A stretch of DNA of 64,000 nucleotides. Origin: Escherichia coli (GTDB taxonomy: Bacteria; Pseudomonadota; Gammaproteobacteria; Enterobacterales; Enterobacteriaceae). Under the pieces are notes generated by a model, which saw only the letters and a program-made list of their open reading frames with translations, ran no database searches and was not told the origin of the DNA. The position numbers were made by a program, and so were the translations under genes. Location: NCBI RefSeq assembly GCF_050920415.1, contig NZ_CP169309.1. One strand, 5' to 3'. This document shows positions 5,606 to 62,600 of this stretch, piece by piece. How positions within the stretch are numbered: the stretch's first letter is position 1; the number at the start of each line of letters is the position of its first letter.

Positions 5606-6550
5606 ATGCTAACATTTTTTATTGGCGATTTATTGCCTATTATCGTAATCATGCTGTTGGGTTATTTTAGCGGCAGACGAGAAACTTTTTCAGAAGATCA
5701 AGCCCGGGCATTTAATAAACTGGTATTAAACTACGCTCTTCCTGCGGCCCTATTTGTTTCTATTACCCGGGCAAACAGGGAAATGATTTTTGCGGACACT
5801 CGCCTGACCCTTGTATCACTTGTGGTTATTGTCGGATGTTTCTTTTTCTCCTGGTTTGGTTGCTACAAATTTTTTAAACGTACCCATGCAGAAGCAGCAG
5901 TATGTGCATTAATTGCAGGTTCACCTACCATTGGATTCCTGGGGTTTGCAGTTCTCGACCCTATTTATGGTGATTCCGTATCAACAGGTTTAGTGGTAGC
6001 AATTATTTCTATTATTGTTAACGCAATTACTATTCCTATTGGTCTGTATTTGCTGAATCCCTCCTCAGGAGCGGATGGTAAGAAGAATAGCAATCTGAGC
6101 GCGTTAATCTCTGCGGCAAAGGAGCCAGTCGTATGGGCACCTGTTCTGGCAACGATCCTGGTGTTGGTTGGGGTAAAAATTCCGGCAGCATGGGATCCAA
6201 CCTTTAATCTGATTGCGAAGGCCAACTCAGGGGTAGCGGTATTCGCTGCGGGGTTGACTCTGGCTGCACATAAATTCGAGTTCAGTGCTGAAATTGCTTA
6301 TAACACCTTCCTGAAGCTGATTCTGATGCCACTGGCACTGCTTCTCGTTGGTATGGCATGTCATTTGAACAGCGAACATCTGCAGATGATGGTACTGGCA
6401 GGCGCATTACCGCCGGCATTCTCCGGAATCATTATTGCCAGCCGGTTTAATGTCTACACCCGCACTGGTACAGCGTCATTGGCTGTTAGCGTGCTGGGTT
6501 TTGTCGTCACGGCTCCCTTGTGGATTTATGTCAGTCGACTGGTTTCATAA
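5606..6550 (+). CDS. yfdV: AEC-family membrane transporter YfdV
   Basis: 314-aa polytopic membrane protein; synteny. Confidence 0.8.
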
Positions 6551-20685: not shown

Positions 20686-21933
20686 ATGGCACTGAATATA
20701 CCATTCAGAAATGTGTACTATCGTTTTGCATCCAGTTACTCATTTCTCTTTTTTATTTCCTGGTCGCTGTGGTGGTCGTTATACGCTATTTGGCTGAAAG
20801 GACATCTAGGGTTGACTGGGACGGAATTAGGTACACTTTATTCGGTCAACCAGTTTACCAGTATTCTATTTATGATGGTCTACGGCATCGTCCAGGATAA
20901 ACTCGGTCTGAAGAAACCGCTTATCTGGTGTATGAGTTTCATCCTGGTCTTGACCGGACCGTTTATGATTTACGTTTATGAACCGTTACTGCAAAGCAAT
21001 TTTTCTGTAGGTCTAATTTTGGGGGCGCTCTTTTTTGGCTTGGGGTATCTGGCGGGCTGCGGTCTGCTTGATAGCTTCACCGAAAAAATGGCACGAAATT
21101 TTCATTTCGAATATGGAACAGCGCGCGCCTGGGGATCTTTTGGCTATGCGATTGGCGCGTTCTTTGCTGGCATATTTTTCAGTATCAGTCCCCATATCAA
21201 CTTCTGGTTGGTTTCGCTATTTGGCGCTGTATTTATGATGATCAACATGCGTTTTAAATATCAGGATCAGCAGTGCGTAGCGGCAGATGCGGGAGGGGTA
21301 AAAAAAGAGGATTTTATTGCAGTTTTCAAGGACCGAAACTTCTGGATTTTCGTCATATTTATTGTGGGGACGTGGTCTTTCTATAACATTTTTGATCAAC
21401 AGCTCTTTCCTGTTTTTTATGCAGGTTTATTCGAATCACACGATGTAGGAACGCGCCTGTATGGTTATCTCAACTCATTCCAGGTTGTACTCGAAGCGCT
21501 GTGCATGGCCATTATTCCTTTCTTTGTTAATCGGGTAGGGCCAAAAAATGCATTACTTATCGGTGTTGTGATTATGGCGTTGCGTATTCTTTCCTGCGCA
21601 CTGTTCGTTAATCCCTGGATTATTTCATTAGTGAAGCTTTTACATGCCATTGAGGTTCCACTGTGTGTCATTTCCGTCTTCAAATACAGCGTGGCAAACT
21701 TTGATAAACGCCTGTCGTCGACGATCTTTCTGATTGGTTTTCAAATTGCCAGTTCGTTGGGGATTGTGTTGCTTTCAACGCCGACTGGAATACTTTTTGA
21801 CCATGCAGGTTACCAGACGGTTTTCTTCGTAATTTCGGGTATTGTCTGCCTGATGTTGTTATTTGGCATTTTCTTCCTGAGTAAAAAACGTGAGCAAATG
21901 GTGATGGAAACGCCTGTACCTTCTGCAATATAG
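20686..21933 (+). CDS. cscB: sucrose:H+ symporter CscB (MFS, LacY-like)
   Basis: 415 aa 12-TMS MFS permease. Confidence 0.85.
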   Translation: MALNIPFRNVYYRFASSYSFLFFISWSLWWSLYAIWLKGHLGLTGTELGTLYSVNQFTSILFMMVYGIVQDKLGLKKPLIWCMSFILVLTGPFMIYVYEPLLQSNFSVGLILGALFFGLGYLAGCGLLDSFTEKMARNFHFEYGTARAWGSFGYAIGAFFAGIFFSISPHINFWLVSLFGAVFMMINMRFKYQDQQCVAADAGGVKKEDFIAVFKDRNFWIFVIFIVGTWSFYNIFDQQLFPVFYAGLFESHDVGTRLYGYLNSFQVVLEALCMAIIPFFVNRVGPKNALLIGVVIMALRILSCALFVNPWIISLVKLLHAIEVPLCVISVFKYSVANFDKRLSSTIFLIGFQIASSLGIVLLSTPTGILFDHAGYQTVFFVISGIVCLMLLFGIFFLSKKREQMVMETPVPSAI

Positions 21934-22363
21934 ACGTAAACTCTTTCCGGTTGTTGTCGATAGCTCTATATCCCTCAACCGGAAAATAATAATACCAAAA
22001 TGCTTAGCGCGGCTAATAATCGCCTAATCCAAACGCCTCATTCATGTTCTGGAACAGCCGCTCAAATGTACTCAGGATACGCGGTTCGCTGATTTCCAGG
22101 AAATTGTCGTAATTCAGCGACCTGTCCCGTGTATCACGGGCCTGCTAATCCATCAAGGAATGCATTGCGGAGTGAAGTATCGAGTCAAGCCAGATTTCGC
22201 GATCAGGATTCTGTGTGATGATTACATTGCCAGGCCCGGGGCTGTTTAGTCATCGCCGCACAGTGCTGAGATTTCAACCTGTTGCAGGGAAAATGAGTAG
22301 ATTTAGGGCAAGTGTGCTGCCAAACCCAACTTTTACGCGGGGAAGGTAGATTTCGTTGGAAGG

Positions 22364-22383
22364 ATAAATGGTGTCCCCTGCAG
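22364..22383. repeat. prophage att core, torI-proximal copy (ATAAATGGTGTCCCCTGCAG)
   Basis: Exact 20-bp direct repeat of 62521-62540, which covers the 3' end of argW. Confidence 0.8.
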
Positions 22384-22456
22384 ACATCTACTTGAAGCGA
22401 CAGGGGATTGATTGGAATGGTGTTTTTTAGATGTGAGAAATATTTTACCCGCTATT

Positions 22457-22657
22457 TTACCCATTGGCGCGGCTTAAGAGCTTATTTTTGAATTCACAAT
22501 GGTCACGATATAACCATCTTGCTCGCCCGTGGATAACTTTGGCTTTTGGCAGGTCGCCGGACTTAATCCGGTCATAGATGAAGGTTTTACCAAAGCCAGT
22601 ATCGGCCATGATGAATTTCAAATCAACCAGTGAATCAGGCTGTAGTTCGTGTTGCAT
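22457..22657 (-). CDS. torI: TorI-like excisionase / recombination directionality factor (AlpA-Xis family)
   Basis: 66 aa; recognised as KplE1 TorI; sits at prophage end opposite the integrase. Confidence 0.8.
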   Translation of the reverse strand: MQHELQPDSLVDLKFIMADTGFGKTFIYDRIKSGDLPKAKVIHGRARWLYRDHCEFKNKLLSRANG

Positions 22658-22702
22658 GAGTGCTATCTCCGAATAGGGAATCGAACCTGCAAATCAGGCA
22701 AT

Positions 22703-31630: not shown

Positions 31631-32407
31631 ATGAGCATGAATCTTATGGCTAAGGCCATGAATATAAAGGTTGGCAACCCACTGAGAAAACTGGTTCTGA
31701 TTAAACTTGCCGATAACGCCAATGATAATGGCGAATGCTGGCCTTCATATCAACATGTCGCTGACCAGTGTGAGGTGAGCAGATCGACAGTAAAAAGTCA
31801 CATTAGGGCACTGGAAGAGATGGGGCTTTTGAAAAGGGAATTCAGAAGAAAAGGAGAGCTTAACCAGTCAAACGTTTTTTATCTGACGCTGGATAATGCA
31901 CAACAAATCCAACCAGAATCAGGTGGGGCAGGAGCTGCCCGGGGTGGGGCAGGAGCTGCCCTAGGGGGTGGGGCAGGAGCTGCCCCCAGAACCTATCACT
32001 CTTTTGAACCAGTCAATGAACCTAAAAACATTATGTTCGAACATGTCCGAACGGAGTGTGAAAAAACTCCTGACCGTCACGAAGAAACCGACAAGGCATT
32101 CGAGGAAATATTCTGGTGTGCAGGCATGCGGAAGGCCGGGAAGAAAAACGCAGCGTCGGCATTCAGAACACAGTTCAGGGAATGGCGTAAAACTACCAGG
32201 GGTACGGCAAGCGAGTTTGCCACGATGCTGGCAGAAGACATCGCATGCAGGAATGGTAAGCAGTTCGGATTCGACAGGTTGTTACCATCGAGCTACCTGA
32301 ACGGTCAACGCTGGAACGACGAGAAGCCAGAAACTATTCAACCACAATCCAAACCATCATCCGCAATCACCGTATCGAAAACTGGCTACGTGTTTTTCGA
32401 CAGGTGA
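31631..32407 (+). CDS. replication initiator (O-like, HTH N-terminus) containing origin iterons
   Basis: 258 aa; internal Gly/Ala-rich segment encoded by the iterons; position between cII and helicase. Confidence 0.6.
   Translation: MSMNLMAKAMNIKVGNPLRKLVLIKLADNANDNGECWPSYQHVADQCEVSRSTVKSHIRALEEMGLLKREFRRKGELNQSNVFYLTLDNAQQIQPESGGAGAARGGAGAALGGGAGAAPRTYHSFEPVNEPKNIMFEHVRTECEKTPDRHEETDKAFEEIFWCAGMRKAGKKNAASAFRTQFREWRKTTRGTASEFATMLAEDIACRNGKQFGFDRLLPSSYLNGQRWNDEKPETIQPQSKPSSAITVSKTGYVFFDR
31923..31985. repeat. three 18-bp direct repeats GTGGGGCAGGAGCTGCCC, candidate ori iterons
   Basis: Copies at 31923-31940, 31944-31961, 31968-31985; each internally near-palindromic. Confidence 0.55.
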
Positions 32408-47167: not shown

Positions 47168-47405
<238 letters not shown>

Positions 47406-61206: not shown

Positions 61207-62400
61207 TCACTCCACCTTTTCATCAATCCAATCCGCCCACCACTGCATCATTTCTCTGCGCTTATCGAGATACTGAGCATGGTTGTAAATTCCGCGCACA
61301 GATCCGCCGTTGGCATGTGCCAGTTGCACTTCAATAGCATCAGCAGGCCATTCGTGCTCGTTCATAATCGTGCTGAATTCATGCCTGAATCCGTGACCGC
61401 TTTCCAGACCTTCATAGCCGATTTGTTTGATCACAAGCAGTACCGCGTTCTCGCAGATTGGCTTCTTCTTATCGTTGCGCCCGGCAAAAACAAACTCTGA
61501 TACTGGTTTGGTGATTGAGCTTAGCGTAGTGAGAAGTTCAACCACCTGGTCCGACATCGGGACAACATGAATCTTGCGTCCCTTCATCACACTGGCGTCG
61601 ATAGTGATAATCCTGTTTTCAAAATCGACGTTCTTCCATTGCATGGAACGAAGCTCTTTCGTTCTTAGGGCTGTGTAGCGTAAAACTTTGGTCGCAATGA
61701 GCGATACGATACTTCCTGAAAATGTTGCCAGTGCTTTGTTGAATGCAGGGATCTGGTCTGCAGGAAGAAACGGGAAGTTCTTCTTGCGGTATCCCTTCAT
61801 GGCGTCAGCAAGGTCAGGTGCCGGGTTATATTTAGCCCTTCCGGTGACAATAGCGTAACGGAAAACCTCGCCGCATCTTCTGCGTGCTTTGTTGGCTCGC
61901 TCCATTGCACCGCGATCTTCAAATCTGCGGATTACTTCCAGAAGTTGCATCGGCTCAATATCCTGAATTTCAAGGCTGCCGATGATAGGTAAAATGTCGT
62001 CATCAAACATTTTGGCAAGTTCAGTTGCATAGCCTACTGACCAGACTTGCTTCTTGTGCTCGTACCATTCCTTGTAAATCGCACTAAAGGAATTGTTGTT
62101 AGACGAAGCCTTTTTCGCCTTTACCGGATCGATACCAACCGAGATGTCTTTCCTCGCAGTCCATGCTTTATCCCTTGCCTCCTGCAAAGTCATAAGCGGA
62201 TATTTTCCGACGGTCAGGATTTTCTCCTTACCGTCAATCTTGTAGCGAAGCTGCCATACCTTTTTCCCTGACACAGGGACATAAAGGTACAGGCCATTAC
62301 CATCGAGAAGGCGGTATGGTTTTTCTTTCGGCTTTGCTGCTTCAATCTGCTTAACGGTGAGCATGGGTAAAAATCCGGTGGGTAAAATTATTTTATCCAC
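61207..62400 (-). CDS. intS: tyrosine integrase (IntS / KplE1-Sf6 type); likely start is the internal ATG at 62364
   Basis: C-terminal catalytic signature R..HGFRHEFST..Y; adjacent to argW. Confidence 0.9.
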   Translation of the reverse strand: MDKIILPTGFLPMLTVKQIEAAKPKEKPYRLLDGNGLYLYVPVSGKKVWQLRYKIDGKEKILTVGKYPLMTLQEARDKAWTARKDISVGIDPVKAKKASSNNNSFSAIYKEWYEHKKQVWSVGYATELAKMFDDDILPIIGSLEIQDIEPMQLLEVIRRFEDRGAMERANKARRRCGEVFRYAIVTGRAKYNPAPDLADAMKGYRKKNFPFLPADQIPAFNKALATFSGSIVSLIATKVLRYTALRTKELRSMQWKNVDFENRIITIDASVMKGRKIHVVPMSDQVVELLTTLSSITKPVSEFVFAGRNDKKKPICENAVLLVIKQIGYEGLESGHGFRHEFSTIMNEHEWPADAIEVQLAHANGGSVRGIYNHAQYLDKRREMMQWWADWIDEKVE

Positions 62401-62520
62401 TTTTTACCCGTCATGGTGTGCGGCTGTCAACGATCTGACGCGAACCATGACGAACTGTGAATCTACGGAAGGCTTGATATTCAGGGGATTTTGCGGACTG
62501 GTACGGATGGGAGCGAACTG

Positions 62521-62540
62521 ATAAATGGTGTCCCCTGCAG
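62521..62540. repeat. prophage att core, integrase/argW-proximal copy
   Basis: Exact repeat of 22364-22383. Confidence 0.8.
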
Positions 62541-62600
62541 GAATCGAACCTGCAATTAGCCCTTAGGAGGGGCTCGTTATATCCATTTAACTAAGAGGAC
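62526..62600 (-). tRNA. argW: tRNA-Arg (argW)
   Basis: Reverse strand reads GTCCTCTTAGTTAAATGGATATAACGAGCCCCTCCTAAGGGCTAATTGCAGGTTCGATTCCTGCAGGGGACACCA, 75 nt with T-arm and CCA end. Confidence 0.9.

Follow-up and report, generated by a model that had tools for sequence, protein, structure and literature searches.

Background

Tyrosine integrases of the heterobivalent kind contact DNA in two ways, with an N-terminal domain on arm sites and C-terminal domains on the core. For KplE1, the cryptic prophage of Escherichia coli K-12, IntS binding data and a mapping of the sites are reportedly contained in a 2007 JBC paper by Panis, Mejean and Ansaldi. A functional IHF site on attR is said to be described in the abstract of a 2010 Virology paper by Panis et al.

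The organization of the KplE1 attL is laid out in some detail elsewhere (PMC2951348). Here, the core is quoted as the 16-nt sequence CTGCAGGGGACACCAT. The four IntS arm-type sites of attL, P'1 to P'4, all contain TAAA; they are termed "previously characterized", citing JBC 2007, and their TAAA was mutated to ATTT. The intS promoter overlaps attL, with TTGACA as its -35 box and TAaAAa as its -10 box, and P'1 lies on the latter. Transcription starts at MG1655 2464536/7, as located by primer extension. Both IntS and TorI repress intS, with P'1 mediating the negative autoregulation. TorI itself has five sites of the GTTCG/GATCG/GTCCG type, arranged in two attL blocks, and these too were defined and mutated (PMC2951348).

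The same elements appear in the annotation of a free phage. The GenBank record of HK620 (AF335538, 2001) carries three "attP" repeat_regions, TGGGTAAAATAGCGGGTAAAATA, CGGGTAAAAAGTGGATAAAATA and AATTTTACCCACCGGATTTTTACCCA, which together hold exactly the six copies of the motif that is the subject of this report.

That motif came to attention in a stretch of 64,000 nucleotides of E. coli DNA (contig NZ_CP169309.1, here called the window), where five copies near the two ends of a prophage had been proposed to bind either the integrase or the recombination directionality factor (RDF). The comparison made below argues strongly for the first of these: the copies are very probably IntS arm-type sites of the KplE1/HK620/Sf6 recombination module. 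Such arm sites are already known, of course, having been mapped, mutated, annotated and published between 2001 and 2010 for essentially identical sequence.

The prophage and its attachment sites

A direct repeat of 21 nt, GATAAATGGTGTCCCCTGCAG, occurs at 22363-22383 and at 62520-62540, and contains the 16-nt core. The right-hand copy falls at the 3' end of the only tRNA gene that ARAGORN finds in the window, that for tRNA-Arg(CCT). Between the two ends lies a complete, mosaic P22-like prophage of about 40 kb, inserted in argW. Among phages it is best matched by Escherichia phages Dewey, Louie, HZ41 and IME10, whose identity is about 96% over roughly half of the first 24 kb.

The ends are far more familiar than the body. 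Against MG1655, attL has four single-base differences, none of them in an arm-type or TorI site. The attR arm is that of K-12 from torI to the end of the core, and the bacterial flank beyond it diverges. When the phage-side halves are joined in silico, the resulting attP is contiguous at 97-99% in Sf6, HK620, IME10, HK633 and others. The recombination module is intact, and the prophage should be able to excise. The features that compose it are collected in Table 1.

Several other observations concern the surroundings. The bacterial flank past attR (22300-22362) is unrelated to the dsdC-side flank of K-12, and the host is therefore of a different E. coli lineage. An open reading frame at 20686-21933 in this flank encodes a putative sucrose permease CscB. 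Within the prophage, a repeat finder reports two loci (47313-47358 and 31920-31985) of short in-frame tandem repeats, one in which CAGAGC recurs about seven times and one in which a unit of 21-24 nt, GGGGTGGGGCAGGAGCTGCCC, occurs three times; both are unrelated to the att sites.

Table 1. Elements of the recombination module in the window, from left to right
Feature	Position	Strand	Basis and remarks
att core, attR copy, 16 nt, CTGCAGGGGACACCAT	22368..22383	-	direct repeat; "attP core" in HK620 and Sf6 records
IHF-like AATCAATCCCCTG, candidate attR IHF site	22401..22413	-	between P-arm sites and core; putative assignment
second P-arm IntS arm-type site, GGGTAAAAT	22443..22450	-	exact motif, conservation
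P-arm IntS arm-type site, GGGTAAAAT	22455..22462	-	exact motif; identical in K-12, HK620, Sf6
torI (hkaC/gene 18 homolog), recombination directionality factor, 66 aa	22457..22657	-	ORF
intS, tyrosine integrase, 385 aa	61207..62364	-	ORF; K-12 intS annotation
P'4 IntS arm-type site	62365..62372	+	inverted; abuts intS ATG (62364 to 62362)
P'3 IntS arm-type site	62380..62387	+	GGGTAAAA on + strand; inverted relative to P'1/P'2
P'2 IntS arm-type site, GGATAAAA	62391..62398	-	one mismatch; 11 bp from P'1
P'1 IntS arm-type site, GGGTAAAA(A)	62402..62409	-	exact motif; overlaps PintS -10
PintS -35 hexamer TTGACA	62425..62430	-	from sequence; stated in PMC2951348; invariant in 7/8 phages
TorI block I3;I4;I5	62432..62459	-	10-bp spacing, ends beside -35; published 2464472-2464499 (PMC2951348) converted
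TorI block I1;I2: ATCAGTTC, 12 nt, ACCAGTCC	62495..62522	-	published 2464409-2464436 (PMC2951348) converted
att core, attL copy = argW 3' end	62525..62540	-	direct repeat
argW, tRNA-Arg(CCT), integration target	62526..62600	-	ARAGORN; identical to K-12 argW

Six copies of the motif on two arms

Five exact copies of the motif (TTTTACCC/GGGTAAAA) are found no more than about 160 bp from one or other att core. A scan that tolerates one mismatch adds a sixth at 62391-62398, amid the right-hand cluster, reading TTTTATCC on the plus strand and GGATAAAA on the minus. The motif is unrelated to the core CTGCAGGGGACACCAT and has copies on both arms.

The observation from which the analysis started is thus real, but it was mislocated on the left and incomplete, as the sixth copy had been missed. 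On the right, GGGTAAAA on the plus strand at 62365-62372 and 62380-62387 and TTTTACCC at 62402-62409 are where the original prediction put them. Of the overlap that it saw with the 5' end of int and its promoter, the promoter part stands, with 62402-62409 on the -10 box, while 62365-62372 abuts the intS ATG without overlapping it. On the left, the pair exists, but had been placed 12 bases too far left; its true positions are 22443-22450 and 22455-22462. The span 22431-22450, said to hold two copies, holds just one, and the letters at 22431-22438 are GATGTGAG. Nor do both left copies lie between the att core and torI: 22443-22450 does, whereas 22455-22462 overlaps the end of torI.

The four copies of the P' arm run from 62409 to 62365, 115-160 bp from the core, and all have TAAA. 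We infer which individual copies should bear the names P'2 to P'4, and likewise the names of the two P sites. P'1 (GGGTAAAAA) overlaps the -10 hexamer TAAAAA at 62406 to 62401, which follows TTGACA after a spacer of 18 nt. The T and A at 62395/62394, 6-7 nt past TAAAAA, are where the published transcription starts fall after conversion. The P'2 and P'3 copies lie in the HK620 repeat_regions CGGGTAAAAAGTGGATAAAATA and AATTTTACCCACCGGATTTTTACCCA, respectively, and P'4 is placed in the intS 5' UTR, at the location expected of a ribosome-binding site. The integrase encoded next to this arm carries an N-terminal Pfam Arm-DNA-bind_3 domain (E = 2.2e-25; residues 3-87, counted from one codon upstream of the ATG, where the submitted translation began), with Phage_int_M and Phage_integrase after it.

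The two copies of the P arm span 59-78 bp from the core, with 12 bp from start to start and the 22443-22450 site 59 bp from the core. On the minus strand, the 22455-22462 site reads GGG-TAA-AA, the Gly66 codon and TAA stop of torI, and it falls within the HK620 "attP" repeat_region TGGGTAAAATAGCGGGTAAAATA. Excision substrates used in vitro can be placed here by their primers (Panis et al., 2012; PMC3509656). The attL substrate covers 62341-62560 (220 bp), and that of attR extends 135 bp leftwards from 22480, with primer attR-IHF2 at 22461-22480. The 22443-22450 site is inside the 135-bp attR substrate, and the two substrates together enclose all six copies. From motif identity, the HK620 annotation, conservation and presence within a functional attR substrate, we infer that the P-arm copies would be IntS sites.

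Between these copies and the core, AATCAATCCCCTG departs by one mismatch from the IHF consensus WATCAANNNNTTR and is kept across the alignment of E. coli and Erwinia phage attP sequences. A scan of the window for WATCAANNNNTTR gives 80 matches against 80.7 expected; with no enrichment, a match is uninformative alone. The neighboring gene, torI, differs from its K-12 counterpart by two synonymous changes only in the alignment, and is annotated in 1609 of 5426 complete E. coli genomes. A Pfam search of TorI returned no match at E <= 0.001; its identity comes from the RefSeq annotation and from its sequence identity to K-12.

An open reading frame of 43 aa on the minus strand (22333-22464) also runs through this arm. 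It is homologous to HK620 hkaB and Sf6 gene 17, has its ATG within CCAATGGGTAAAAT, and translates the two P-arm sites as GKI-A-GKI. It crosses the att core, so that in the prophage its C-terminus comes from host DNA. A genuine gene here is unlikely.

Conservation in diverged phages

Diverged forms of this attP are present in the Klebsiella phages Chronis and RCIP0114 (76-78% identity), the Erwinia phages Midgardsormr38 and vB_EhrS_49 (74.5%), and the Salmonella phage Emek (69%). When attP is aligned with MAFFT, islands of conservation mark the core, the -35 box and all of the six arm and five TorI sites. Among the seven phages with sites of the GGGTAAA type, 42 of the 48 arm-site columns are invariant, while elsewhere in the non-coding attP 52 of 140 are (Fisher p = 5e-10, a value that overstates independence because these seven phages represent about four independent lineages).

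The variation that is tolerated gives the consensus G-R-R-T-A-A-A. P'1 shows no variation among all GGGTAAA-type phages. At the equivalent of the 22455-22462 site, the phages of Klebsiella and Erwinia have GGGTAAAG and GGGTAAAT, and Emek has GGGCATAA; P'2 is GAGTAAAA in the Klebsiella phages and GGGCACAT in Emek.

Emek (L009 429-684) departs from the others in an orderly way. Its core and its spacings (12, 59, 115 and 11 bp) equal those of the window. Its arm sites, on the other hand, read GGGCATAA, GGGCATAA, GGGCATAT, GGGCACAT and TTATGCCC, the last being the counterpart of P'4 and the reverse complement of GGGCATAA, so that GGGCATAA or GGGCAYAT stands at five of the six positions. Over the N-terminal 100 residues, the Emek integrase is 55% identical to IntS, compared with 81-97% for the others.

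A single word is altered in concert at a number of fixed positions, and the arm-binding domain has diverged with it, as would be expected of sites recognized by one protein's domain. By its sequence, Emek looks like a case of a concerted switch in arm specificity with the core target unchanged. That the rewriting of GGGTAAAA to GGGCATAA at five of six positions, together with the Int N-terminal domain and with core, site count and spacing all kept, amounts to a natural specificity swap is a tentative proposal, and we would sooner doubt it than rely on it. If true, it would let the recognition code of Arm-DNA-bind_3 be read. The comparison supplies a small and clean example in which arm sites and arm-binding domain change together with an unaltered core target.

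Promoter elements, TorI sites or chance

The copies might be mere promoter elements, resembling the -10 boxes TAAAAT or TAAAAA, or simply AT-rich untranslated sequence, with no role in recombination. Such a view draws on the coincidence of P'1 with the experimentally mapped -10 box (PMC2951348) and on a promoter scan that reports a promoter-like match in the P' stretch. TAAAAT is a good -10 hexamer, and it is contained in GGGTAAAAT; therefore the conservation of P'1 could in part reflect promoter function alone. The generic sigma-70 scan, it should be said, missed TTGACA-18-TAAAAA itself, as it demands T at position 6 of the -10 box, and reported another, weak match.

The rest of the pattern is hard to obtain from promoters, however. 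The GGG part of the motif is conserved as well as its TAAA part. Copies occur in both orientations, and also at the far end of the prophage over the torI stop, where no promoter is needed. The Emek sites shift jointly to GGGCATAA, which does not resemble a -10 box, while their spacing to the core remains exact to the base, and the integrase has a domain dedicated to arm binding. The conserved GGG, the inverted copies, those at the torI stop and the Emek word led to rejection of promoter function as the whole explanation, which is very improbable.

The other half of the original prediction, that the copies bind the RDF, would make them sites of the excisionase TorI. The sites of RDFs tend to be short and directly repeated, to recur at intervals of roughly one helical turn and to lie close to att cores, and the spacing of the motif, 12 bp in the attR pair and 11 bp between P'1 and P'2, has just that character. 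The mapped TorI sites, however, are separate from the motif, at 62522-62495 and 62459-62432. Published MG1655 positions were carried over by anchoring on the intS ATG and the mapped transcription starts, with an offset taken as 1978 bases between NC_000913.3 and the version of the MG1655 sequence used in the published work. The mapping is validated by the published spacings, which recur here (12 nt between I1 and I2, 2 nt within I3-I5). The I1;I2 block has pentamers of the GTTCG/GTCCG kind. The pentamers of I3-I5 are GTTCG, GTTCG and GATCG, at 62455, 62445 and 62435, in a block conserved in all of the diverged phages.

The motif TTTTACCC contains none of the pentamers GTTCG, GATCG or GTCCG, and no pentamer of the TorI type was found on the attR arm. 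Further, sites that contain TAAA are treated as IntS arm-type in the KplE1 work (PMC2951348), and the inverted P'3 and P'4 would be unexpected for a cooperative RDF filament. With a TorI motif that differs, that is located elsewhere and that is absent from the attR arm, the copies are extremely unlikely to be RDF sites, and this part of the prediction was abandoned. The integrase part has fared better: the copies match the experimentally characterized IntS sites in the near-identical arms of K-12 KplE1.

A different element near torI does resemble a TorI site. An exact 16-nt repeat, GGAATCGAACCTGCAA, occurs at 22677-22692 and at 62540-62555, the latter being the segment of the argW T-arm that abuts the att core. 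The former is 20 nt upstream of the torI ATG and 293 bp (torI plus the P arm) from the attR core copy. GGAATCGAACCTGCAA is also found upstream of torI in K-12, HK620 and Sf6, and in the HK620 record this region bears annotations for a cII box (TTGCCTGATTTGC) and for a "phage integration" promoter. Upstream of torI, the element AGGTTCGATTCCC matches the argW T-arm exactly and includes the GGTTCG that forms the TorI core; Erwinia phage Midgardsormr38 has two tandem copies of it, and the Klebsiella phages are without it. It could be a TorI operator, in which case the RDF would regulate its own synthesis; it could also be a relic of the tRNA, or a product of chance.

How often should the motif appear at all? 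A background count over the whole window finds nine exact copies, where dinucleotide-preserving shuffles of the window predict 1.59 +/- 1.22, and none of 100 shuffles reaches nine. If nine matches are placed uniformly, three in 45 bp would occur with P ~1e-4, and at least five of the nine inside two 160-bp arms with P ~4e-10, so that the clustering is well above chance. The 40-kb prophage interior has no exact copy. The other four, each reading GGGTAAAAA, are lone singles at 6171, 11404, 14763 and 21296 in the 22-kb host flank, unclustered and slightly above the shuffle expectation for that length.

The clustering of a motif of just 8 bp, with four flank copies somewhat in excess of the shuffle prediction, might still be laid to chance or composition, a view that was rejected and has next to no probability in the face of these shuffle and placement statistics and of positions and spacings conserved in phages of only 69-78% identity.

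A model for IntS on its arms

The reading preferred here remains that of IntS arm-type sites, a direct pair on the P arm and, on the P' arm, two direct and two inverted copies, one of them degenerate (GGATAAAA). IntS, as a heterobivalent tyrosine recombinase, would hold these sites through its N-terminal Arm-DNA-bind_3 domain, while its C-terminal domains would bind and cut the 16-nt core in argW. In this way it would bridge arm and core, both within and between att partners. IHF would bend attR and help the arms to fold into an intasome, and cooperative binding of TorI to its five attL sites would promote the folding of the arms that leads to excision. The intasome would then carry out integration or excision.

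The same sites would govern the supply of the enzyme. P'1 overlaps the -10 box, and P'2-P'4 would cover the start site and the 5' UTR as far as the ATG. Occupancy of P'1-P'4 by IntS thus shuts off intS. This shut-off keeps IntS in the narrow range of concentration at which excision is efficient (PMC2951348).

Comparison with known systems

The value of these results is largely one of annotation: prophage ends, core, arm sites, RDF sites and the intS promoter are placed to the base.

The closest relative is KplE1 (CPS-53) of K-12. The two share the argW site and the 16-nt core, their attL and attR arms are about 99% identical, and the six arm sites, the five TorI sites, both promoter boxes (-35, -10) and the positions of the transcription starts are all identical. 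In both, intS and torI are found at opposite ends of the prophage, with the intS promoter within attL. KplE1 is a cryptic remnant of 10 kb, whereas the P22-like prophage of the window is complete, at about 40 kb; at the ends themselves, the direct repeat measures 21 nt in the window and 16 in K-12.

HK620 and the Shigella phage Sf6 (Lederbergvirus) have the in-silico attP as a contiguous sequence, at 97.6-98.6% identity. They are, of course, free phage genomes with a whole attP, while in the window the attP is split into attL and attR. Further, the prophage in the window is a mosaic, and at most about 55% of its first 24 kb matches any single phage.

Phage lambda offers the more distant comparison. 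Lambda Int is likewise a heterobivalent integrase that uses short motifs in each of the two arms (P1, P2 and P'1-P'3 in lambda), with no relation to the core sequence, and in lambda as here, accessory bending proteins (IHF and the RDF) set directionality. However, the arm motif and the number, orientation and spacing of its copies are all unlike those of lambda, and the arm-binding domain of IntS belongs to the P4-type Arm-DNA-bind_3 family, which that of lambda does not. In the KplE1 type of module, it is attL, the arm next to int, that carries the RDF sites, and not the P arm as in lambda. Also unlike lambda, the genes for integrase and RDF flank attP on opposite sides and are transcribed separately, and the int promoter lies inside an arm, which leads to autorepression by the integrase (PMC2951348).
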